From: Candidatus Pacearchaeota archaeon
GTDB lineage: Archaea; Nanobdellota; Nanobdellia; Pacearchaeales; GW2011-AR1
Direction: 5' to 3'
Length of the DNA stretch: 64,000 bases
NCBI GenBank assembly: GCA_018303825.1
Contig: JAGVXK010000021.1
Coordinates: forward strand, 7,752 to 71,751
How positions within the stretch are numbered: the first letter of the stretch is position 1; every line of letters begins with the position of its first letter. Positions 1 to 27,926 of the stretch are shown here, one piece after another. The notes below the pieces were generated by a model. The model worked only from the letters and a program-made list of their open reading frames with translations. It ran no database searches and had not been told where the DNA came from. The position numbers were made by a program, and so were the translations under genes.

Positions 1-2174
1 AGAGAAAGAAATTTTATTCATTAAAGACTATCGCTAAATCTACTTTATTCACGCACAGAATTGAATCAGCAATTGCAACAGGAAGCTGGATTGGAGAAAG
101 GTCTGGAGTTACGCAGAATATGGACAAGACGAACTATCTTGCAATGCTTTCACAGCTGATGAGAGTTACTTCTATGCTTCCGGGAGAACAGGAGAACTTC
201 CTGGCCAGAACATTGCATCCGACACATTATGGAAGATTCTGCACTACGGAAAGCCCGGAAGGAGGAGAGCTTGGATTAAGAAAGAACTTATCTATATTAG
301 CAAAAATTTCAACTCATCTTGAATTTGATGAGCCTGCCGTAATGAAAAAATTCAAGGAGCTTGGATTGAATGCAGAGAATGGGAGCGACGTGTTTTTCAA
401 TGGAAGAGCAATTGGATTTGTCAGCAATCCTGGAGAATTTGCAGACAAAGCAAGATGGGCAAGAAGAAACTCTGAATTACCGAAGGAATTAAGTGTTAGA
501 TTTGATGAAGATACTGGAATAATTCTCATGTCAACTGAAGTTGGAAGAGTTCTCAGGCCTTTAATAGTTGTAGAAAATAGTGCCAGCAGATTGAGAGATG
601 AGCATTTGGAACTTTTAGAAGAGGGAAAAATAACATGGAGTGATTTAATTAGCCAGGGAATAGTTGAATATATTGATGCTGCCGAAGAAGATAATGCATA
701 TGTTTCTTTATTACAAGATAAATTAACAAGCGAACATACTCATTTGGAAGTAGACTGGGTGGATTTATTCGGACTTATTACAAGTTTAGTCCCATTTGCA
801 AACCACGATCCAGGATCAAGATTGATAAGAGGAAGCAAGACATTAAAGCAGAGCTTGGGAATTTATGCTGCAAACTATCTTGTAAGATTAGATACTGATG
901 TTTCTGTGCTGCATTATCCACAAAAGCCAATTGTTAGAAGTTTTGTGTATGACACTCTTGATGTATATCCTGCTGGGCAAAATATTGTTGTAGCAATTAT
1001 GCCTTTCGAAGGATATAATTTGGAAGATGCTGTTGTGTTGAATAAAGCAAGCATTGACAGAGGAATGGGCAGATCAACTTATTTTAGGCCATATTCCACA
1101 ACAGAATTGCAATATGCTGGAGGATTGTCAGATGAAATACTTATTCCAGATAAGGATGTTTCTGGTTATAGGACCGAAATGTCATATAAATATTTGGAAG
1201 ATGATGGAATCGCATTCCCCGAAGCTTCTATGAATGAAGGGGAAGTATTGATTGGAAAAGTAACTCCCCCTAAATTCTTGTCTGAGGCAAAAGACATAAG
1301 CATCCAAGCAAAAAAAGAAGCCAGCGTTGCAGTCAGACAGGAAGAAAAAGGAACAGTTGATGCTGTATTTGTCACAGTAGATCAGGAAGGAAATAGAATT
1401 GCACAAGTCAGGACAAGAGATTTGAGACTTCCAGAAATAGGAGACAAATTCTCTACGCCTCATGGGCAAAAAGGAGTAGTCGGATTAATTGCTGATGCCG
1501 AGGATATTCCGTTCACTGGAAGGGGGGTAAAGCCGGATCTGATGTTCAACCCGCAAGGCATCCCGAGCAGAATGACAATAGGATATCTTATTGAATTATT
1601 AGCCGGAAAAGTAGCTTCTACAAATGGAAAAATAATTGACGGAACTCCATTCGCAGGACAAACTGCCGAGGAATTGGAGGAGCAATTGAGGGAGATGGGA
1701 TTCAGCTATGACGGAAAAGAATCTATGTATAATGGAATTACTGGAAAAAAAATGGATGTTAAAATTTATATTGGGAATATGTATTATTTGAAATTGAAGC
1801 ACATGGTCGGAAACAAGCTTCACGCAAGAGCTTCTGGAAAAGTTGCATTATTGACAAGGCAGCCTATTGAAGGAAGAGCGAGGGGGGGAGGACTAAGACT
1901 GGGGGAAATGGAGCAGCAGGCATTAGCAGGGCATGGAGCATCATTGCTGTTGAAAGAAAGATATGATTCTGACAAGACAGTTATCTGGATTTGCAAAGAA
2001 TGCGGAAATATGACATATGAAGATACTTTAAGAAATAAAATTGGATGTGATATCTGCGGAAGCAATGAGTCGGAAGCCATAGAGGTTTCATATGCATTCA
2101 AATTACTAGTTGATGAACTTCTTGGATTGGGAATTCACACCTCATTTGAATTAAAGGAGAAATACGCACGATGA
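1..2174 (+). CDS. rpoB: DNA-directed RNA polymerase subunit B (Rpo2), C-terminal ~720 aa; 5' end outside the window
   Basis: ORF 120..2174 stays open in the same frame back to base 3 (..GSWIGERSGVTQNMDKTNYLAMLSQLMRV..). It carries RNAP-B blocks (GQKGVVG, PDLMFNPQGIPSRMT) and a C-terminal CxxC..CxxC zinc ribbon. TGA stop at 2172-2174. Confidence 0.95.
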   Translation, partial: RKKFYSLKTIAKSTLFTHRIESAIATGSWIGERSGVTQNMDKTNYLAMLSQLMRVTSMLPGEQENFLARTLHPTHYGRFCTTESPEGGELGLRKNLSILAKISTHLEFDEPAVMKKFKELGLNAENGSDVFFNGRAIGFVSNPGEFADKARWARRNSELPKELSVRFDEDTGIILMSTEVGRVLRPLIVVENSASRLRDEHLELLEEGKITWSDLISQGIVEYIDAAEEDNAYVSLLQDKLTSEHTHLEVDWVDLFGLITSLVPFANHDPGSRLIRGSKTLKQSLGIYAANYLVRLDTDVSVLHYPQKPIVRSFVYDTLDVYPAGQNIVVAIMPFEGYNLEDAVVLNKASIDRGMGRSTYFRPYSTTELQYAGGLSDEILIPDKDVSGYRTEMSYKYLEDDGIAFPEASMNEGEVLIGKVTPPKFLSEAKDISIQAKKEASVAVRQEEKGTVDAVFVTVDQEGNRIAQVRTRDLRLPEIGDKFSTPHGQKGVVGLIADAEDIPFTGRGVKPDLMFNPQGIPSRMTIGYLIELLAGKVASTNGKIIDGTPFAGQTAEELEEQLREMGFSYDGKESMYNGITGKKMDVKIYIGNMYYLKLKHMVGNKLHARASGKVALLTRQPIEGRARGGGLRLGEMEQQALAGHGASLLLKERYDSDKTVIWICKECGNMTYEDTLRNKIGCDICGSNESEAIEVSYAFKLLVDELLGLGIHTSFELKEKYAR

Positions 2175-16975: not shown

Positions 16976-17569
16976 ATGAAAAAATCCCTTATTTTAATGG
17001 GCCTGGCACTATCATTTCTAATCCTAGCGGTCACTATGACATCAGCTTATACTAACTATCCAACTTACTACTCAAATAATTACAATAACTACTATTCGAA
17101 CACATATCCTACTTACTCGCAATCTGCAAGTGCCAATTCGGGCTCAAACTCCCAATACTTTAATTTTGGCCCTATAACAAGCAGGAATACGTATTATGAT
17201 TCAAAGTTTGCAAGCTCAAACTTTGACTCAACAGACTATGCCCTAGCCTATCAAGGTCCAATGGCATCAAGAGCAATAACTTATGATTCTTATTTAAAGA
17301 TAAAACCTTCTGGAAAAGTAATACAGACTGTATCTTATGCTGATAAATCAAACTTTGTTGGGGAAATAGCTTTAGAAACAGCTAACTCGCGAAATAGAAG
17401 AACCTCAGCTTCAGAAACGATAAAAACATCAACTGATAATTCCTGGAAGGGCTACACTTGGAGCAACAAAGAAGCATTTGACAACAGCAAATATTCGCAG
17501 AATTCTGGCTGGGATAATTACTATTATCGACCTGTTTTCTCAAACGGTTATTACAACTGGGACTGGTAA
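16976..17569 (+). CDS. Secreted Tyr/Asn/Ser-rich low-complexity protein
   Basis: A signal-peptide-like N-terminus (MKKSLILMGLALSFLILAVTMTSA) is followed by YTNYPTYYSNNYNNYYSNTYPTY.. repeats. Confidence 0.55.
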   Translation: MKKSLILMGLALSFLILAVTMTSAYTNYPTYYSNNYNNYYSNTYPTYSQSASANSGSNSQYFNFGPITSRNTYYDSKFASSNFDSTDYALAYQGPMASRAITYDSYLKIKPSGKVIQTVSYADKSNFVGEIALETANSRNRRTSASETIKTSTDNSWKGYTWSNKEAFDNSKYSQNSGWDNYYYRPVFSNGYYNWDW

Positions 17570-17620
17570 AAAATAGTTGGCACGTTAAGAAAGCCCCTCG
17601 TGTCTTGAATATTTGTTCGT

Positions 17621-17694
17621 GAATCTCTCTTCGAGTGGAATTGACGGCTATTTTAAGTTTGGATTTATGATTTGCGGTGGTGGGAAGGTGCGCT
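17621..17694 (-). repeat. Island repeat, inverted partial copy (arm A)
   Basis: Perfect reverse complements of blocks in copy B: 17681-17694 vs 18145-18158 (14 bp), 17661-17675 vs 18218-18232 (15 bp), 17639-17647 vs 18244-18252 (9 bp). Confidence 0.75.
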
Positions 17695-17701
17695 TTGTGC
17701 A

Positions 17702-18091
17702 TCAAATAGCTACTAATATACTCTCTTTTGCTCTGCTAGTCTCATCTGCAAATGGAACACCTCTCTTGTCATTATACCATCCATATGTTTCTACTTTAGC
17801 TCTTTGTTCTGCAAGTTTCTTTGCAATATCATGTGTTCTTTGCTCCACATTTTCACATTCATCGACTATTCCAATAACGCCATGCACATGTTCAATTCTA
17901 ACTTGCGCTCTATTTTCAAGTAACAAAATAACATATTTGCCATCAATTGGTTTTTCTGGAGTAGCAACTACTATCGTATTCCATACGTCATCTCTTAAAG
18001 GGTTAAAAAATTTAAAAGCAGATATATATTTATAGCCATCATTCCGTTCTGGTTTCCTTTCCTGCAAAACAATCCTTGGTCCGCTACCCAT
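17702..18091 (-). CDS. Hypothetical protein (129 aa) bracketed by inverted repeat arms
   Basis: Balanced, charged composition. The overlapping + strand ORF 17613..18035 is Ser/Cys/Leu-rich and starts inside the repeat. Confidence 0.55.
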   Translation of the reverse strand: MGSGPRIVLQERKPERNDGYKYISAFKFFNPLRDDVWNTIVVATPEKPIDGKYVILLLENRAQVRIEHVHGVIGIVDECENVEQRTHDIAKKLAEQRAKVETYGWYNDKRGVPFADETSRAKESILVAI

Positions 18092-18144
18092 CTTTAAACA
18101 ATATTCATCGCCCTTTTAATTATTTCTATATTGTAAAATATGTT

Positions 18145-18423
18145 AGCGCACCTTCCCATTTCTTATTCATCAATTATTTCGCGAAGCGACTATTTAGGGG
18201 CGGGTGGTCGGGGGAATGCAAATCATAAATCCGTTTAATATTTCCGTCAATTACGTTTAAGCGAGATTAAACTGTCTGCTTTCTGATTTGGGAAAGGGCT
18301 TAAGCGTAACGAGAAGAGAGATTGAGAATTATTTTCATTCTGAAAATAACTTCCTATTTAATTTATAATATTAAGAAGCAAATTTCAAGTTCATTTAATC
18401 GTTCAGGCTAAAAGAACTTTCAA
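18145..18423 (+). repeat. Island repeat copy 1, 5' half (B); candidate structured RNA or MITE-like element
   Basis: Hairpin tcgc-gaa-gcga at 18179-18189. G-rich block at 18197-18214. Hairpin cgtttaagc/gcttaagcg at 18254-18262/18298-18306. 28-nt block at 18396-18423 identical to 22758-22785. Confidence 0.7.
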
Positions 18424-18485
18424 CCAAAAGAAGACAAATCCGAAAAATATATATACCATGATTTATCACTATATTCAATTAACTC

Positions 18486-18509
18486 CATGAGATCTGTAAG
18501 GATCTCATG
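18486..18509 (+). promoter_or_regulatory. Perfect 9-bp inverted repeat catgagatc-tgtaag-gatctcatg just upstream of the NYN gene start
   Basis: 18486-18494 pairs with 18501-18509. It ends 9 nt before the ATG at 18518. Confidence 0.35.
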
Positions 18510-18517
18510 TTTTTTAT

Positions 18518-19066
18518 ATGAATTCCAAAAAAGAGAAGGTTGCGATTTACATCGATGGTAGTAATTTATATTTCTCAATAAAAGATACATTCAATTGTAA
18601 AATTGACTTAGAAAAATTCTGTAAAAAATTAGTGAATGATGATGATTTAGCGAAGATTAATTATTATATTGCTCCTGTTGAGCAATTAGAAAATCCTAAA
18701 GCATACGCTCAACAGCAATCATTCTTTGAAAAATTAAGGAAAATTGATAAACTAAATCTAATTTTTGGCAGGCTAGAAAAGAGAAAGAAAGATGGAGAAA
18801 TATACCATGTAGAAAAAGCAACAGATGTAAATCTTGCCCTTGATTTGGCTTTAGATGCACAAAAAGGGGAATATGATAAGGCTCTTCTTATCTCAAATGA
18901 TGGTGACTTTTCTGGAGCGGTAACTGCCGCAGTCAGTTTCAAAAGAAAAGTCATTTATATTGCCATAGGCACCAACAAATCTATATCTTATCATTTGAAG
19001 AAAGTGGCATCTGCAACCTTTCGAATTAATAAGGAATTCATTGATGAATGTAAATTGGATGAGTAG
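18518..19066 (+). CDS. NYN-domain (LabA/DUF88-like) protein
   Basis: VAIYIDGSNLYFS.. at the N-terminus and ..ALLISNDGDFSGAV.. match the NYN/LabA-type nuclease fold pattern. Confidence 0.75.
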   Translation: MNSKKEKVAIYIDGSNLYFSIKDTFNCKIDLEKFCKKLVNDDDLAKINYYIAPVEQLENPKAYAQQQSFFEKLRKIDKLNLIFGRLEKRKKDGEIYHVEKATDVNLALDLALDAQKGEYDKALLISNDGDFSGAVTAAVSFKRKVIYIAIGTNKSISYHLKKVASATFRINKEFIDECKLDE

Positions 19067-19144
19067 AGTTTTCGGCTATTAGTATATGGTGAAAGTTGGG
19101 TTAAATCTCGTTTCGAACTAAGAGAACAATTATGGAATAATTGA

Positions 19145-19326
19145 GAGATTTACCTTTTAGCAGAGATTAGGCGAGTCTGAAAGACCTCGAGCTACGAACT
19201 AAGAGTCTCGAGTTAGCTAAACCTCACAAGAATGGGCTCTTTGCGTAATTGCTGAGAATCTTATGTTCTTAGGGCATTTCATTTGTATCTGTCGGGGGCG
19301 CGTTTTTGCTTCTCGCAGAAAATCTC
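19145..19326 (+). repeat. Island repeat copy 1, 3' half (C)
   Basis: gagattaggcgag at 19163-19175 (identical to 22884-22896). ctcgag/ctcgag stem at 19186-19191/19207-19212. cgtaattg at 19244-19251. G-rich arm gtcgggggc.. at 19291-19326. Confidence 0.7.
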
Positions 19327-19409
19327 TGATTTTCTGAGCCATCAAGAACTTTGTTCTTGAGGTTTTCTGAAAAAGAAGATTTTTTATATGTTGTTTATTA
19401 TTAATATCT

Positions 19410-19727
19410 ATGACTTATGCAGTTTATACAACTGAGAGTTTTGATAAAGAGGTTGAGAAATTGTCTGGAGGAGACCGAGAGATAATTCAGAAAATGTTTT
19501 TTAAGATTAAAGACAATCCTTACGCCAGTAACCAATTAAGATACAAGAATCTTAGAGAGAAGCGAATTAGAGAAAAAAGAGTTTATTTTCTAGTTTATGA
19601 TGATTTGCGAGCAGTTCTTATTGTTGCTATAAGCGGTAAGAAAGACCAACAAGCAACAATCAATCATATAATCAATTACTTTGATGATTATAAAGAATAC
19701 TTGGAAAAATTGCTAGGAAAAGATTAA
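19410..19727 (+). CDS. relE: RelE/ParE-family toxin
   Basis: 105 aa. The pattern ..EKRIREKRVYFLVYDDLRAVLIVAISGKKDQ.. is typical of RelE/ParE mRNA-interferase toxins. Confidence 0.7.
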   Translation: MTYAVYTTESFDKEVEKLSGGDREIIQKMFFKIKDNPYASNQLRYKNLREKRIREKRVYFLVYDDLRAVLIVAISGKKDQQATINHIINYFDDYKEYLEKLLGKD

Positions 19728-19879
19728 GCAACCTGTCTTACTCTGCCAGCTTTAACATCTTCTAAACTTGCCTTGAACTGCCTTAATAAATCAAAGTCTA
19801 TCTTTTCTAGCTCTCTGAGCATAGCTACTTGAGCCTTCATCTTCTCGTATTCATCTTTTGGTACCTTTACCATTTCCAT
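19724..19879 (-). CDS. Small antitoxin-like protein (51 aa), convergent with and overlapping relE by 4 nt
   Basis: MEMVKVPKDEYEKMKAQVAMLRELEKIDFDLLRQFKASLEDVKAGRV resembles the C-terminal ..DIKAGRV helices of Phd/YefM-type antitoxins. Below the ORF-track cutoff. Confidence 0.4.
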   Translation of the reverse strand: MEMVKVPKDEYEKMKAQVAMLRELEKIDFDLLRQFKASLEDVKAGRVRQVA

Positions 19880-19936
19880 AAATATTTCTAAGAATCAAAG
19901 TTTTTAAGCTTTCTGGAAGTCACTTTTGCCCCCTTG

Positions 19937-20074
19937 TTATTGGTTAATTATCTCTATTTTGAGCTCTACTATCGTTCCCGGTTTTAGTCTCTCCTCTAAC
20001 AATTTAGGCATGATTATTATAGCTTGTTTGCCGTGCTTGGCGATTTTCTTGATTATTGTGAATTGAGTTGTCAT
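19937..20074 (-). CDS. AbrB/SpoVT-like small DNA-binding protein (45 aa)
   Basis: MTTQFTIIKKIAKHGKQAIIIMPKLLEERLKPGTIVELKIEIINQ follows the AbrB/MazE-type swapped-hairpin pattern (..G.s..v.iPk.l.e.l.l..G..v.i.i). Confidence 0.45.
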   Translation of the reverse strand: MTTQFTIIKKIAKHGKQAIIIMPKLLEERLKPGTIVELKIEIINQ

Positions 20075-20258
20075 CTTACTAATTTATAGATCTCATAAAT
20101 AGATACTCCTAAAATTGCATATCTTATTGCAATATTCTTTGCAAAATCCCAGAAAGGATTACCTAAGGGCGAGCCTAAAAATAAAGTATTAAACTTTATT
20201 CCAATAATCTATATTTTCCCACGAGATATCGTAGACAATTGTTTAAAAATTTACTAAC

Positions 20259-20429
20259 TTATTCTGCGGTGAGCCCTAAACTATCTTGATCTGGCAATGC
20301 ATCAGCATAGCAGTCATCTAACAATCTTTCATCAATTCTCTTCAAAGCCCTTCTTTCTCCAATAATTGGAATTGAATCTTTAACAAGTTCGACTAACGAA
20401 ATCTTTTTGTTATTTGCCTTCTCTTTCAT
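20259..20429 (-). CDS. Small hypothetical protein (56 aa), third gene of a minus-strand operon
   Basis: The ATG at 20429 lies 5 nt after the stop of 20435..21145. Translation: MKEKANNKKISLVELVKDSIPIIGERRALKRIDERLLDDCYADALPDQDSLGLTAE. Confidence 0.35.
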   Translation of the reverse strand: MKEKANNKKISLVELVKDSIPIIGERRALKRIDERLLDDCYADALPDQDSLGLTAE

Positions 20430-20434
20430 TTTTT

Positions 20435-21145
20435 CTAACCTCGTATTGAATCTTCTACAATTCTATTCACTTCTGAAAGTATGCGTTCCCTCGTTCTCTG
20501 ACCAAAAATCCTATGGATTAATGAACTATCGTCATAACTTTGTAAAACAAACTCAACATTTGGAGGAGATGTAAATTTCTTAAATCTTCTAAGGGGATAA
20601 ATAGTAGTAACTTTAACCACACAACCATTTTGTTCTCCACCATTTCTTCTTTCAAACAAATCTGTTTCTGCATTCTTTCCATATTCGTCTACTACTCGAT
20701 GGTCGTCTAATACTTGGAGGTATTGTAAATATGGAATTTGACCTTTAGGACAAACGTTTTTTGGTCTAAAACTAAAAGGTTCTTTGTTAATTTTATCTGC
20801 TACAAAGGTCAAGATGTCTTCGGGTGCCTTGAATAAATGTCTACCAAAATCCCTAAAATCTTGCCCTAAAATACCTATTTGAACGCCTTCCCTAGCAGAA
20901 AAACTATAATCTTTCTTTGTATCAAATTCTGTCCAAATATGCCCGCCTAGACTCTCTAAGTGCCCAGTACCATCCAGATGGTTTACAAGAAAAGCGGGCC
21001 AAGTTCCCTTATTGTAATATCCTACCTGACATCCTGTAATTCTTACATTGCCCATTCCATGCAAAAGGTACATTAAATGCTCTGGGCTAATACTATCAAA
21101 TATGGCACTGTTTTGTACTCTCTTATCATACTTTTGTTCAATCAT
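20435..21145 (-). CDS. Hypothetical protein (236 aa)
   Basis: Long ORF with normal composition. Its start overlaps the stop of the upstream gene (ATGA). His/Gly-rich segment HLDGTGHLESLGGHIW. No family recognised. Confidence 0.6.
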   Translation of the reverse strand: MIEQKYDKRVQNSAIFDSISPEHLMYLLHGMGNVRITGCQVGYYNKGTWPAFLVNHLDGTGHLESLGGHIWTEFDTKKDYSFSAREGVQIGILGQDFRDFGRHLFKAPEDILTFVADKINKEPFSFRPKNVCPKGQIPYLQYLQVLDDHRVVDEYGKNAETDLFERRNGGEQNGCVVKVTTIYPLRRFKKFTSPPNVEFVLQSYDDSSLIHRIFGQRTRERILSEVNRIVEDSIRG

Positions 21146-21723
21146 TTTCTTTCACCTCCGAATTTTTTCTGAAGAAAATCCAATGCTAGTTGCCTTTCTC
21201 TTTCTGATTCAAAAATAACAAGGGGCCTTGGCCAAGGTTTGTTACATTTTTTAATAAAAAATTCAAGCAGGGATTGATGAGAAGAAGCTAATAGATGATC
21301 AAACCCGCTAGGGGTTAAATCTGAGTAACCTGGTGTCATCGGGCGACCTATTTTGTCTGCGATAGAATTAACCTCATAGGGTCTTGGTGTGAATGATAAC
21401 GCATAAACCCTCAAACTATCTCCAAACCTACCTGTATTGACGTGCTGAATTAGGCATAATTGATCTCCCAAATAAAGATGCATTTGCATATCCATTTTAT
21501 CTCTTTCATCCGCATTACAATAAATACGCCCGCCAGGAACAACGGGTGATGCTCCGCATAGAGTTATTTCGCCAAACTGAGCAACCCTCTCTAAGTAAAT
21601 TGGACCCCCATCATTAAATCTCGGTGCACATAATGATAAGTTAACACTTCTCTCTCTACAAAAAATTGCGTTTGCCATTTCTTGATGGGCGTCTTTTCTT
21701 TCTATGTTTAATCTTATTCTCAT
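21142..21723 (-). CDS. Hypothetical protein (193 aa)
   Basis: First gene of the operon divergent from the TrmB-like gene at 21852. No family recognised. Confidence 0.6.
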   Translation of the reverse strand: MRIRLNIERKDAHQEMANAIFCRERSVNLSLCAPRFNDGGPIYLERVAQFGEITLCGASPVVPGGRIYCNADERDKMDMQMHLYLGDQLCLIQHVNTGRFGDSLRVYALSFTPRPYEVNSIADKIGRPMTPGYSDLTPSGFDHLLASSHQSLLEFFIKKCNKPWPRPLVIFESERERQLALDFLQKKFGGERK

Positions 21724-21851
21724 TTTCTATTTCTCCCAAGTTTATTTACTATCATAAGATAATGGCATAATAAAGTGTATTTAAATTATTGTTGTAAGGA
21801 AGCTATTAACAATTTAGAAAGAATTAAATATAACAATTCACTTGATTTTAT

Positions 21852-22565
21852 ATGGAAATAACTACACTCGAGAGTCTTGGAATGAACAAAACAGAGGCCA
21901 AAGTATATCTGGCTTTACTTGAATTGGGAGAAGTACAAGCAGGACAGATAAGTAAAAAATCAGGAGTTAATAGAACAAGCACGTATGATTCATTAGAAAG
22001 ACTAATATCGAAGGGTCTCGTTAAATATGTTATTCAATCAAATAAAAAGGTATTCGGGGCAGATAAACCCAATAAAATAGTTGAGCAATTAAAAGAACAG
22101 GAGAGAATAGCTAAGCAAATACTGCCAGAACTTAATAATTTGTTTAAAGAATCAAAAAAAGATGAGGAATCTGAGATCTATAAAGGCAGAAAAGGGATAA
22201 GGTCTATCTTGTTTGAAATAGTAAAATATAAAGAATATATTGCTTTTGGCTCAAAAGGCAAGTTTTTAGAGATAATGAAGCACGATTTTGAGATTTTTCA
22301 AAAAAGGAAGAAAAAATTAAAGATAAAAGCCAGAGTAATATTAAGAGAATCTGATAGGACTTCTGAATCTGTTAAGGTTGCTTATAGTGATTTTAAATTT
22401 GTTCCTGATGAATATGGATCTCCGACTACTACATTTGTTTATGGAAATAATATTGCCATAATTGTCTGGCTGTCTGAGCCAATCGCTACAGTAATAAAGA
22501 GTAAAGAGGTCGCTGAAAGCTATTCGCATTATTTTGAACTACTTTGGAAACTCGCAAAGCCCTAG
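21852..22565 (+). CDS. TrmB-family transcriptional regulator (paralog 1)
   Basis: The N-terminal winged helix LESLGMNKTEAKVYLALLELGEVQAGQISKKSGVNRTSTYDSLERLISKGLV is a typical TrmB HTH. Confidence 0.8.
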   Translation: MEITTLESLGMNKTEAKVYLALLELGEVQAGQISKKSGVNRTSTYDSLERLISKGLVKYVIQSNKKVFGADKPNKIVEQLKEQERIAKQILPELNNLFKESKKDEESEIYKGRKGIRSILFEIVKYKEYIAFGSKGKFLEIMKHDFEIFQKRKKKLKIKARVILRESDRTSESVKVAYSDFKFVPDEYGSPTTTFVYGNNIAIIVWLSEPIATVIKSKEVAESYSHYFELLWKLAKP

Positions 22566-23037
22566 ATGATACCTTCTTCGGCGTGAGCCGAAGCTCTCTG
22601 TGCGAAGCACCCAAGCCCCCGACCAATTTCTGTTTGACTGAAATGCCTACAATCAGCAATTTCGTTTAAGCTTGATTAAACCTTTGGATTTTTTGTTAGT
22701 GGCTTAAGCGGAGCAAAGAGCCAATTACTATTTTAAAGTTGAGGTTTACTTTTCGTCTAATCGTTCAGGCTAAAAGAACTTTCAAGGCAATTGTTAAAAG
22801 TCAAAATAATTGAAAGTTACAGAAAATTATGGTTTCCATAAAGGAAATACTTTAGGATAAAGTAAATAATTTTTCTTTTAGTGGAGATTAGGCGAGTCCA
22901 AAGGACCTCTTGGTGCGAATTAAGAGCCAAGAGTTAGTAAACCACAACGAAATATTTGCGAATAAGTGTAATTGCTGGCTATTTTGGTTTTGGGGCTGGC
23001 GAGGCGTTTTTCTAAGGGGCACTTTTTCCTAGTCTAA
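22566..23037 (+). repeat. Island repeat copy 2 (D), full length; candidate structured RNA or MITE-like element
   Basis: GNRA hairpin cttcggc-gtga-gccgaag at 22576-22593. gtgc-gaa-gcac at 22600-22610. C-rich block at 22611-22623. Hairpin at 22663-22671/22702-22710. 28-nt block at 22758-22785. gagattaggcgag at 22884-22896. Stem at 22907-22913/22927-22933. aattgctg at 22970-22977. G-rich arm at 22992-23027. Confidence 0.75.
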
Positions 23038-23544
23038 CTAGTTAATTAAAAACCTATAATAAGATGTAAGAAAATCCAAATTATCTTTAGGATTTATATT
23101 CATATTTCCCTCTCCTGTAAAAATAACCTTGTCCCTGAGAGGATATAATGGTGACGACCTAAACTCTACATATCCAACTCCCGCCACCCTAAACCATGGC
23201 TCAAAGTCATCATGACCACCCGTGGGCAAAATTATCCCATTTCTAATCTCACTCAAAATATGTACAATTTCTGATCTATCCCTCATTCTTGTCAATTTAG
23301 CAAAATTGAATTTTGTTATTGCATGTGCAACAAGCTTCCTATAAAACTCTGTGCCATACTCGTGATCTGAATTTGAATCGAAGTTCCTTCGACAAAAATG
23401 AAATTCCAGAGGATTTCCTTCAAAATTGGATGACTTAATCAAATTAAGACTATCTTCCAAAAACACGTCTAACGCATTCCGAATACACAACGGGTACTTA
23501 CCAACCCTTCTGAATATAAACGCGTCATCATATAACTTCTCCAT
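23038..23544 (-). CDS. Hypothetical protein (168 aa)
   Basis: Divergent from the TrmB-like gene at 23630. No family recognised. Confidence 0.6.
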   Translation of the reverse strand: MEKLYDDAFIFRRVGKYPLCIRNALDVFLEDSLNLIKSSNFEGNPLEFHFCRRNFDSNSDHEYGTEFYRKLVAHAITKFNFAKLTRMRDRSEIVHILSEIRNGIILPTGGHDDFEPWFRVAGVGYVEFRSSPLYPLRDKVIFTGEGNMNINPKDNLDFLTSYYRFLIN

Positions 23545-23629
23545 GAACTCTCTGTCTTGCCTAGTCTTTTAAATCTTAGTTGTTATTATTAATAACAACA
23601 TTTAAATAATCACTACAATAAAACTAATA

Positions 23630-24337
23630 ATGGAAGAACTCATAGAAAATTTAAAAATGGCCGGTCTAACTGGAAATGAATCAAAAGTTTACGTAGGTCT
23701 AATTAAGATTGGAGAAACTTCAGCCAACGAATTAGCAAAAAATCTGAGTTTAGACAGAACATTAACATATACTATTCTAAACCATTTAATAGAAAAGGGA
23801 ATGGTTGGCTATGTTATCAAAGCAAATAAAAAGTTCTTCTCGGCATCTGAACCACAAAACCTATTAAATAAAATAAAAAAAGATGAAACAGCGATAAAAA
23901 GAGTGATAGAAACTTTAAAAACAATGAAAACAACAAACGAGCCCTCCCCGAAAGTGAATGTTTATGATGGGAAAGAGGGACTCAGAACATTCTTAAGGCT
24001 TCTGACAAAAGATAAGAAGATTTCTGCATTTGGAGCGACAGGCAGATTATATGACTCTCTCTTCGAAACAGAAGCCATCGCAAAAGAATTAAAAAAAACA
24101 TTATCTGCTAGAATTATTGCTAGTAATAAATATCGCACCCATCCAATTAGGAAAATAAAGAGAATTGAAGTAAGATATTTAGATGTGGACAACGAGGCAA
24201 CAACAACCATTTTCGGAGATTATATTGCCCTACATCTTTTAACAGATAAACCATTCATAATAACAATCAAGAACAAAGAAATTGCGCATGGTTATCTAAA
24301 CTATTTCAATCTTCTCTGGAAAATCGCCAAGAAATAA
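23630..24337 (+). CDS. TrmB-family transcriptional regulator (paralog 2)
   Basis: LKMAGLTGNESKVYVGLIKIGETSANELAKNLSLDRTLTYTILNHLIEKGMV. Its C-terminus ..YLNYFNLLWKIAKK parallels ..YSHYFELLWKLAKP of paralog 1. Confidence 0.8.
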   Translation: MEELIENLKMAGLTGNESKVYVGLIKIGETSANELAKNLSLDRTLTYTILNHLIEKGMVGYVIKANKKFFSASEPQNLLNKIKKDETAIKRVIETLKTMKTTNEPSPKVNVYDGKEGLRTFLRLLTKDKKISAFGATGRLYDSLFETEAIAKELKKTLSARIIASNKYRTHPIRKIKRIEVRYLDVDNEATTTIFGDYIALHLLTDKPFIITIKNKEIAHGYLNYFNLLWKIAKK

Positions 24338-24797
24338 TCTGAAAAAGTGCCCCGTTCTGCTGTTTGATAATTATTGTTCGTATTTTCGCCAACAGGCGAC
24401 TATCTGTGCGTAGCACCACCGAGCCAGCCCCTATCGAACTTCCAGCAATTTTGTTTAAACTAGATTAAACGCTCTGCGTCTGATTTCTGAAAATGGTTTA
24501 AACGAAACGAATGAGCAAATCCCTAAAGAGGTTTACTTATCGTTTAATCGTTCGTAATAAGAGTGGTTTTAGCCATTAATACTTAAATCGTATGAGCTAA
24601 AACTAAGACTAAATTCCGTCTTTCTACTAAAGAAAGTATTTCAGGATGAAATAAGGAATTTATCTCTTATGTGAGATTAGCCGACCACTTTAGTAGCGCG
24701 AGCTGATTACGAAAATCCTCGCGACTTTTGCTTTGTTCTCAGCCGATTTCGAAGCGTAATTGCCAAGATTTATAAAGTAGTAGATTTTATTTAGATT
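24338..24797 (+). repeat. Island repeat copy 3 (E), near full length
   Basis: aaaaagtgcccc at 24342-24353. Hairpin tcgcc-aaca-ggcga at 24386-24399. gtgc-gta-gcac at 24406-24416. gccagcccc at 24423-24431. Hairpin gtttaaac/gtttaaac at 24453-24460/24496-24503. gagattagccgac at 24673-24685. Stem cgcgag/ctcgcg at 24697-24702/24718-24723. aattgc at 24758-24763. Confidence 0.75.
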
Positions 24798-25085
24798 ATG
24801 GGTTGGAAAAACTGGAGTTATTGGTTGAGAGGAGGTTTTTTGCTAGCAACGATTTACTTTATTTATACTTTACTTATAAATCAATTATATGGGACAGTTA
24901 TAAAAGCAGGATTATATCGCATATTATATGAGGTCGGATATCCCTTCAATTTTGTACGGTTTTTGGTTATGGGCTTTAATGAATCATTCATAGCCATAAT
25001 TTTCAGTTGGATAATTGCATATATTGTCTTTTTCCTTCTTGGAGCAATAATTGGTTGGATCGTTGGTAAAATAAAATCTAAGTAA
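24798..25085 (+). CDS. Small membrane protein (95 aa)
   Basis: Three hydrophobic segments. Flanked on both sides by island repeat copies. Confidence 0.55.
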   Translation: MGWKNWSYWLRGGFLLATIYFIYTLLINQLYGTVIKAGLYRILYEVGYPFNFVRFLVMGFNESFIAIIFSWIIAYIVFFLLGAIIGWIVGKIKSK

Positions 25086-25367: not shown

Positions 25368-27926
25368 TTAACCTAATATGCTCAAATTCACTTGGACTTC
25401 TGGTTCTTTTGGAACTTTAACAATATCCGCCACTTTGTCTCCTTCTTTCAACTTAACCACATGGACTCCCTGCGTGGCTCTTCCCATGACTCTCAAGTCC
25501 CTCATGCTCGTTCTAAGGACCATCCCTTTTGTTGTCGTTATTATCACAGAATCACGGTCGTTGACACACAAAGAAGAGATGACATTTCCTGTTCTTTCAG
25601 AAACATCAAGACTAATTACTCCTTTTGCGCCCCTCGATGTCTTCCTATATTCTTCTAAATCTGATCTCTTCCCGAATCCTTTTTCTGCTACGGTAAGTAT
25701 TGTTGTTTTCCCATTCATCGGAAGACTTTCAAGAGCGACAACTTCATCTGTCTTTCCTAATTCTGCGCCTTTTACCCCATAAGATACCCTTCCCATAGGC
25801 CTTACCTCGTCGCTGTTGAATCTAACCGCCTGCCCTTTCTTTGTGACAAGCATTACTTCCTGCTTATCTATGACATGACTTACATTGATTAAAATATCAG
25901 AATTATCTGCCGGGAGATTTATTACCCTAACGCCCGTATTTCTTGGTTTGCTCAAATCTTTCAGTGGAAGCTTCTTTACCATTCCAAGTTTCGTGGCAAA
26001 CATCAAATATCCCACATCGAAATTCTTTACAGCTTTTACATTTGCTATGGCTTCATCTCTTAAACTTAAAAGATTGACAATTGCTTTCCCCTTTCCTTGT
26101 CTTTCTGCTGATGGAATATCATTTGCTTTCAGCCAATAAACCCTCCCCCTTGTTGTGAAGAACAATAAGAAATCATGTGTTGAGCAGGTAAGCATCTTGT
26201 TTACAAAATCTTCCTCTTTAAGTTCTGCCCCGCTTGTTCCAGCTCCGCCCCTCTTCTGCTCTTTATATGCCTTAACATCAACTCTCTTCACATATCCTGA
26301 GTTTGTAATCATAATGACAACATCTTTCTTCTCAATAAGGTCTTTTTCTGTTATTTCCTCAACCCTTCTTAATATTCTTGTTCTTCTCTCATCACCATAT
26401 TTTGTCTTAAATTCCTGAACCTCTCTCTTTATAACCTTTAGAATTTCTTTTTCGTCTCCAAGAATTTTCTTCAAGTCAGAAATTCCCTCTTTAAGCTTCT
26501 TTTCCTCATCCCTGAGCTTTCCTTCTTCTAATCTTGTCAATTGCTGCAATCTTATCTCCAAAACTGCCCTTGCCTGCTTATCAGTCAAAGAGAATTTCTT
26601 CATTAAGCCATCGTGTGCATCTGTCGCATTAGCTGATTTTTTGATAAATTCAACAACTTTATCAATATTCTTCTGCGCAATTAAAAGACCTAAGACAATT
26701 TCAAGCCTTTCTTCAGCTTTCTTCAATTCAAACTTGCTTCTATTCCTGACTATTAATCTTCTGTATTTGATATATTCTTCAATTATCTGCTTCAAATTAA
26801 GAACAACCGGCTTATTTCCAACAAGAGCAAGAAGATTTGCATCAAAACTCGTTTCCAGGTTAGTTGAAGTGTAAAGCTTGTTCAATGTAAATTTAGAATC
26901 AACTTCTTTTTTCAATTCAACAACAATTCTTACCTTTCCTTTGGAAGATTCGTCTCTTAAGTCATAAACATCTGGGAGCTTTTTCTCAGTTGCAAGCCTT
27001 GCAATCGATGTAACAAGATCAGACTTGTTAACCATGTAAGGTATTTCATTAATGATTATGATTGGCCTCCCTTTGCGCTCTTCAACTGTTGTTTTTCCTC
27101 TTATTACAATTTTTCCCTTTCCAGACTTATACATATCTTTTATTCCGTCTCCAAATATCTGTCCCCCTGTTGGAAAATCAGGGCCCTTTACTACTTCAGC
27201 AAGTTCATCTATAGTTATTTCCGGCTTGTTTATGCATTCAATTATTGCATCGCATACTTCTGTTAGATTATGGGGGGGAATATTTGTGGCCATTCCTACA
27301 GCTATTCCCGTAGCCCCATTAATTAGTAAATTTGGCAATTTCGCAGGAAGTGTTTCCGGCTCTTTTGTTGAATTATCGAAGTTAGGCCTCATCTTCACAG
27401 TTTCTTTATCAATGTCTTCAATTAATTCCTGTGAAATCTTTGAAAGTTTTACTTCTGTGTATCTTTGTGCTGCCGGACTATCTCCATCGAGTGAACCAAA
27501 ATTTCCTTGCCCGTGCACAAGTGGGTATCTTAAAGAAAAATCCTGTGCCATTCTCACGAGAGAATCATATACTGCAATATCACCATGTGGATGATACTTT
27601 CCTAAAACTTCTCCTACTACTGCCGCTGATTTTCTTGTTGGCTTGCTCGCATCAAGCCCAATAGAATGCATCGCATATAAAATTCTTCTGTGCACAGGTT
27701 TTAACCCATCCTCAACACTTGGAAGTGCTCTCTGAACAATAACGGACATTGCATAATCTATATATGCCTGCTCCATTTCCTCGACTATTTCCACGTTTGC
27801 TACGCCCTTCTCAACTTCTCCCTTTGCTCTTCTTTCCTGCTCTTTCTTTTCTGCTTCTATATCTATCTTTTTCTCTGTTTCATTCCCATTGCAATTTCCA
27901 TTTTTGTTTTCTTGCTTCTCCGCCAT
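25368..27926 (-). CDS. gyrA: DNA gyrase subunit A
   Basis: [29 protein letters not shown], with the active-site Tyr region ..[10 protein letters not shown].. and C-terminal beta-pinwheel repeats. 852 aa. Confidence 0.95.

Follow-up and report, generated by a model that had tools for sequence, protein, structure and literature searches.

The window analysed in this work, i.e. the whole stretch of DNA under study, extends over positions 7752-71751 (64 kb) of contig C22 in an archaeal genome assembled in 23 contigs (806 kb, 86% complete). The host is a DPANN archaeon (Nanoarchaeota), close to Pacearchaeota/Woesearchaeota; its DNA gyrase A, encoded on the minus strand (25368-27926), is 72-78% identical to that of Candidatus Pacearchaeota, Woesearchaeota and Nanoarchaeota MAGs. 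The presence of TrmB-family regulators agrees with this placement. Adjoining gyrA there is an array (approximately 17500-25000) in which copies of a repeat alternate with small ORFs. Read along the plus strand, the array contains the 3'-end fragment of one copy (17589-17675), a copy split by the gene of a 182-aa NYN-domain RNase (18518-19066), the gene of a RelE/ParE-like toxin directly after this copy (19410-19727), and the genes of two paralogous regulators, TrmB1 (21852-22565) and TrmB2 (23630-24337), each trailed by a further copy (D and E, respectively). The array is a lineage-specific island: at the corresponding position of 80 related genomes the whole of it was missing. Repeat copies and small ORFs alternate also in a second island, located on contig C18, and the genes found in the two islands include TrmB paralogues, RelE/ParE toxins and the NYN RNase.

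Two observations concern other parts of the window. Rfam identified a 128-nt tRNA (57592-57719, minus strand), which was missed by ARAGORN and is probably an intron-containing archaeal tRNA. The GC skew changes sign several times between positions 1 and 64000 (around 11-13 kb and 51-53 kb), probably because the genes change orientation and not because of replication origins.

Anatomy of the repeat

The segment 22566-23037, which an earlier note on this DNA had interpreted as a structured plus-strand RNA, is one copy (D) of a previously undescribed non-coding intergenic repeat of approximately 0.45-0.55 kb. All sequences quoted in that note are present in the DNA as described. We derived the anatomy of the element from an alignment of 20 copies (A2) collected from the host genome and 21 metagenome contigs, from mapping with nhmmer, and from analysis of the ends. 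The element begins with a region of approximately 100-150 nt containing a variable 5' hairpin, followed by a subterminal inverted repeat (CAGCAATT / CGTCAATT), a "foot" palindrome, a 27-mer, a CTCGAG-type 3' hairpin, the counterpart AATTGCTG of the subterminal repeat and a T-rich, G-rich tail.

In the nhmmer copy map D occupies 22552-23000 on the plus strand, its homology with one of the copies in the C18 island (c18c) beginning at 22552. At its 5' end D overlaps the stop codon of TrmB1 (22563-22565), and it closes with the T-rich tail CTATTTTGG. Its 5' hairpin (CTTCGGC-GTGA-GCCGAAG, 22576-22593) is weakly conserved as a pair. The subterminal inverted repeats CAGCAATT and AATTGCTG (22654-22977) bound a core of approximately 320 nt, within which lie the 9-bp foot palindrome CGTTTAAGC / GCTTAAGCG (22663-22710), the best-conserved helix of the element, the invariant 27-mer AATCGTTCAGGCTAAAAGAACTTTCAA (22759-22785), and the 3' hairpin CTCTTGG / CCAAGAG (22907-22933), which is of the CTCGAG type in other copies. 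In the RNAalifold consensus the ends of the 27-mer pair with the downstream motifs GAGATTAG and TTGAAAGTT over distances of approximately 100-800 nt. Copy E (24338-24800, plus strand) follows the stop of TrmB2 (24337) without a gap, and 4 bp separate its end from a 95-aa ORF on the same strand; its subterminal inverted repeats are at 24443-24450/24755-24762, its core at 24445-24762, its foot at 24452-24504 and its 3' hairpin at 24697-24723. Like D, copy E is complete.

The earlier note had listed B, C, D and E as copies of one element. They do form one family, but B and C count as one copy: B supplies the 5' half and C the 3' half of a single element (BC, 18140-19300, plus strand), which is split by the NYN ORF. 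The 5' half (18140-18430) has an outer repeat GCGCACCTTCCC at approximately 18143, the left inverted repeat (18248-18255), the foot palindrome (18254-18306) and the 27-mer (18397-18423), whereas the 3' half (19067-19300) carries the GAGATTAG motif, the 3' hairpin (19186-19212) and the right inverted repeat (19244-19251). What had been described as a long-range closing helix is the subterminal inverted-repeat pair, which in BC flanks the ORF insertion; its pairing is indeed kept. This pair is present in most copies, but it does not mark the ends of the element, because approximately 100-150 nt of conserved 5' region and the T/G-rich 3' tail lie outside it. Some copies additionally have, outside the subterminal pair, an outer 12-nt inverted repeat: GCGCACCTTCCC opens some copies and its inverse GGGAAGGTGCGC closes others, with exact matches in several, such as the fragment at 17589-17675, which terminates in an exact GGGAAGGTGCGC.

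Copies and distribution

The host genome contains seven to nine copies, all of them within the two islands, four of these copies or part-copies being on contig C18. Sequence identity between copies is 66-97% and is distributed in patches. Further copies were found in 21 metagenome contigs from related DPANN archaea, most of which represent other strains or species with different genes next to the repeat. The exact 27-mer AATCGTTCAGGCTAAAAGAACTTTCAA occurs five times in the host genome and in the 21 metagenome contigs, but in none of 400 other sampled Nanoarchaeota genomes of GTDB, and the repeat was not found near gyrA in the 80 related genomes, thus the family is lineage-restricted and resides in variable islands. 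The 27-mer had no match in the viral contigs of IMG/VR, nor had the repeat in a phage database. The array of a related strain (L092) is a mosaic, in which copies of the C18 and C22 types are separated by different ORFs.

Two features expected of miniature inverted-repeat elements (MITEs) were found, namely inverted repeats at or near the ends (the subterminal pair in most copies, the outer repeat in some), and presence in several copies, at different loci as well as in related genomes. A third, ends common to an autonomous transposon, was not found in the host genome. This genome encodes an IS200-type Y1 TnpA (151 aa; C17:12284-12649), an IS4-family DDE transposase (C20:7066-7620) and, away from the arrays, two tyrosine recombinases (C4:19377-19847 and C5:17891-18376); the element showed no similarity to any of these loci. 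Flanking sequences were often co-duplicated between copies. Neither target-site duplications nor, in a search limited to the vicinity of gyrA, empty sites were found, and contigs belonging to one species were all 100% identical and showed no polymorphic insertion. In a metagenome contig of another organism (L097) a gene for an IS4-like DDE transposase (1131-2042, minus strand) is located between two element copies.

Conservation of base pairing

Python was used to count pairs and to run the controls on the copy alignments; in the control one arm of a helix was shifted by 1-3 columns and the pairing was recounted. Compensatory changes had been claimed for four helices. Three of them, the foot, the 3' hairpin and the long-range pair, hold up and beat the shifted controls, but the 5' hairpin does not. 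In the foot palindrome all 144 cells of the 16 copies with this segment in A2 were paired, compared with 14-52% after shifting of the arm. Six of these cells were compensatory, with G:C replaced by A:T at one pair; one position was T:G, T:A, C:G or G:C in different copies, and a second position was T·G. The 3' hairpin was 75% paired in A2 and exists in covarying versions (CTCGAG...CTCGAG; CTCTTGG/CCAAGAG in D and L102; CCCAAG/CTTGGG in L109). For the long-range pair CAGCAATT/AATTGCTG the value was 80%, as opposed to 19-55% in the shifted controls (A2), with some compensation, e.g. A:T to G:C in L098. The 5' hairpins differ in sequence, their positions are roughly homologous, and they were 59% paired, a figure obtained from few copies.

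In an alignment of the core of 12 copies, 97.4% of the cells of the RNAalifold plus-strand consensus structure were paired and 110 were compensatory. In 500 per-pair shuffles of this alignment the corresponding values were 82.3±0.8% and 31.8±4.4, and none of the 500 reached the level of the consensus fold. It must be noted that the margin over the shuffles is partly built in, because the structure was predicted from the same sequences. The compensatory changes, together with pairing above the level of the shifted controls, indicate that selection keeps the intramolecular pairing, a conclusion that we regard as well supported. The family of structured repeats is thus real, and its helices have been kept paired across the copies.

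Strand and transcription

The plus strand of every copy folded more stably than the minus strand and had more G·T pairs, but dinucleotide-shuffled copies showed the same advantage of the plus strand. The preference is therefore explained by the G-rich composition of the plus strand (G>C bias), and the proposal that the plus strand is the folding strand loses its basis, as the shuffles matched both the G·T asymmetry and the fold stability. It is true, as the earlier note had pointed out, that the T:G pairs themselves are compatible with the plus-strand transcript only; being compositional, however, they do not point to the existence of a transcript. The Rfam covariance models yielded no match, either at the gathering thresholds or at E<=1. 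A look-up of RNA reads covering the repeat gave none, a result that carries no weight in either direction.

The positions of the copies do bear on transcription. In approximately 10 of 13 informative contexts the 5' end of the element was 0-20 bp from an upstream stop codon on the same strand. The upstream genes differ: TrmB1 precedes D, TrmB2 precedes E, an Lrp-like regulator precedes c18c, a 97-aa ORF precedes c18b, and others were found in the metagenome contigs. Many copies in A2 end in T-rich tails. Location directly after same-strand stop codons makes co-transcription of the plus strand likely, thus, judging from the sequence context, the repeat is probably co-transcribed into the 3' UTRs of the upstream genes.

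The NYN RNase and the toxins

The product of the ORF that splits copy BC (18518-19066) matches the Pfam NYN family (E=7.9e-19) and, over residues 6-181, the PADLOC model HEC-09 (E=2.3e-26), the match covering the full length required by the model; the conserved acidic residues of the HEC-09 family are kept. HEC-09 proteins, which have three conserved aspartates, were found embedded in Hma defence systems, but no phage defence was seen in E. coli (bioRxiv 10.1101/2024.01.29.577857). Inside the ORF insertion, 9 bp before the start codon of the NYN gene, a T-run directly succeeds a perfect 10-bp palindrome, an arrangement that resembles a terminator (18486-18509, plus strand). The insertion of an NYN gene in the element recurs in other strains (L093, L101 and L107), and it recurs together with a TrmB-like protein and a ParE-like toxin. 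In our genome, only one of the seven copies has the NYN gene. In the C18 island, a ParE toxin (L001 7681-8133, minus strand) adjoins the 3' end of an element, and the block consisting of the element 3' end and the toxin is duplicated between the two islands (70% over 1 kb).

Discussion

We think that these sequences are REP/MITE-like, structured selfish repeats restricted to a lineage of DPANN archaea, and estimate the probability of this interpretation at somewhat below one half (roughly 0.45). It is consistent with the multiple copies and their mobile-like distribution, the inverted repeats near the ends, the version carrying the NYN gene as cargo, the rearranged arrays, the pairing beyond the controls and the abutment on stop codons. 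Against it, we found no transposase or recombinase with matching ends, no target duplications and no polymorphic insertions, the flanks are often co-duplicated, and the copies are few and confined to two islands. The nested inverted repeats, i.e. the outer 12-nt repeat of some copies, the subterminal pair, the foot, the internal helix anchored by the 27-mer and the 3' hairpin, whose pairing is kept by compensatory changes, would be the architecture recognised by a mobilizing or recombining enzyme, most likely as a folded single strand, similarly to the ends of IS200/IS605 elements, REPs and attC sites. By such a putative mechanism, probably involving recognition of the folded element, the family would spread and be reshuffled inside islands, one version carrying an NYN RNase gene. 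Since each copy trails a same-strand gene, it would probably form part of the transcript of this gene, as a structured 3' UTR or terminator; position and T-rich tails suggest a similarity in this respect to bacterial REP/BIME and ERIC/Correia elements. Any role as RNA would then be secondary to the spread of the element.

It is interesting to compare the repeat with the bacterial families mentioned above. REP/BIME elements (REPINs) are likewise multi-copy and intergenic, often lie directly downstream of genes, and consist of imperfect palindromes with compensatory changes; transcribed together with genes, they become part of the 3' ends of mRNAs, whose stabilisation or processing they bring about, and they are mobilised as folded single strands by the IS200-like RAYT. 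However, a REP is approximately 35 nt and a REPIN approximately 100 nt long, whereas our repeat, with its nested helices, has approximately 500 nt, i.e. about ten times the length of a REP, and REP/BIME elements occur in tens to hundreds of copies with a RAYT nearby, as opposed to the seven to nine copies, without an adjoining RAYT, in the archaeal DPANN host. We therefore rejected identity with REP on the grounds of size and copy number; the IS200-type Y1 TnpA is on another contig. ERIC and Correia (CREE) elements of Enterobacteria and Neisseria share with our repeat a length of a few hundred bp, terminal inverted repeats, intergenic location and a MITE-like character, and are often co-transcribed, forming stable RNA stem-loops in 3' UTRs. 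They are bacterial families with their own consensus, whereas here TA target duplications were not detectable, the arrays are cassette-like and one version has the NYN gene. IS-derived MITEs are also non-coding and multi-copy, with near-end inverted repeats, different loci in related genomes and ORF-carrying variants, as here, but our repeat lacks a detected partner transposase, is confined to two islands, has a low copy number and has an elaborate internal structure.

The most serious alternative, plausible though in our opinion less likely, is that the element is a functional cis-acting structured RNA, a 3' UTR domain of read-through transcripts of the upstream gene. The role of such a domain would be e.g. 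stabilisation or processing of the mRNA, or to serve as substrate or regulator of the NYN RNase or the RelE toxin, in a manner similar to type III toxin-antitoxin (TA) systems. This would agree with copies beginning at same-strand stop codons, with the compensation seen in three helices, with a consensus fold superior to the shuffles (though it was derived from the same data), and with the T-rich tails after the closing stem, which fit archaeal termination. The composition-based explanation of the strand preference, the lack of an Rfam match and the presence of the NYN gene in only one of seven genomic copies are less easily accommodated, and the multi-copy, mobile-like anatomy is more simply explained by selfish spread. 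The idea that the repeat is an RNA element in its own right is not supported by its anatomy, which is that of a multi-copy repeat with internal and outer inverted repeats, an ORF-carrying version and arrays that vary between strains.

Copy BC deserves separate mention. The terminator-like palindrome that precedes the NYN gene between the two halves is loosely reminiscent of toxI-toxN, and the NYN protein is, as a HEC-09 member, a candidate defence RNase. Like the type III TA system ToxIN, copy BC, but no other copy, combines an RNA-forming element, a terminator-like hairpin and a downstream RNase gene. It differs from ToxIN in that the RNase is of the NYN (HEC-09) type, not ToxN, and most copies of the family have no toxin; upstream of the RNase there are no tandem RNA antitoxin repeats, just one half of the element. 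We regard it as quite improbable that the repeat, the NYN (HEC-09) RNase and the RelE/ParE toxins constitute an RNA-based system, and it seems equally improbable that, within such a system, the 3'-UTR element RNAs would be structured substrates or RNA antitoxins of the NYN RNase. If true, this would mean that in DPANN archaea a mobile repeat is linked with a function in defence or as a toxin-antitoxin system.

We also considered, as a distant alternative, that the elements are integron-like recombination sites, which, folded as single-stranded DNA in the manner of attC, would allow a tyrosine recombinase to shuffle ORF cassettes. As in integron arrays, structured elements alternate with ORFs, abut the upstream stop codons and are all on one strand within each island, the arrays differ between strains, and the genome encodes two tyrosine recombinases. 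These are, however, on other contigs, one element has the NYN ORF in its interior, and with approximately 500 nt the repeat is about four times longer than attC sites (57-141 nt). The R'' (RYYYAAC) and R' (GTTRRRY) boxes of attC were not found at the element ends, and no integrase gene adjoins the arrays, thus identity with attC was rejected. Integron attC sites and gene-cassette arrays are not known in archaea. The attC sites fold on the bottom (antisense) strand; in our repeat the plus-strand folds are favoured and the G·T signal is on the sense strand, but dinucleotide shuffles give the same bias, so this signal is compositional. Finally, the location of a repeat copy directly after each of the paralogues TrmB1 and TrmB2 suggests that gene and downstream copy were duplicated together, and some copies have common flanks, but plain segmental duplication of such blocks (TrmB1 with D, TrmB2 with E) without any activity of the element itself, with palindromes that are ancestral and kept as protein-binding sites in DNA, is hardly probable as an explanation of the family, being largely contradicted by the occurrence of the element next to different neighbours in many unrelated contexts and organisms, by the invariant 27-mer common to different species and by the consistent internal anatomy of the copies.

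The covariation found here shows that in repeats of this kind conservation of pairing cannot, by itself, prove that the structure acts as RNA. DPANN archaea are symbionts with small genomes, and very little is known about their non-coding repeats, regulatory RNAs and mobile elements. Islands with TrmB, RelE/ParE toxins and a candidate defence NYN protein raise the question whether the repeat is simply selfish or belongs to an island with a toxin-antitoxin or defence role. Bacterial REP and ERIC elements are known to shape mRNA stability, and a repeat located at the 3' ends of genes in cassette-like arrays would be their archaeal counterpart.
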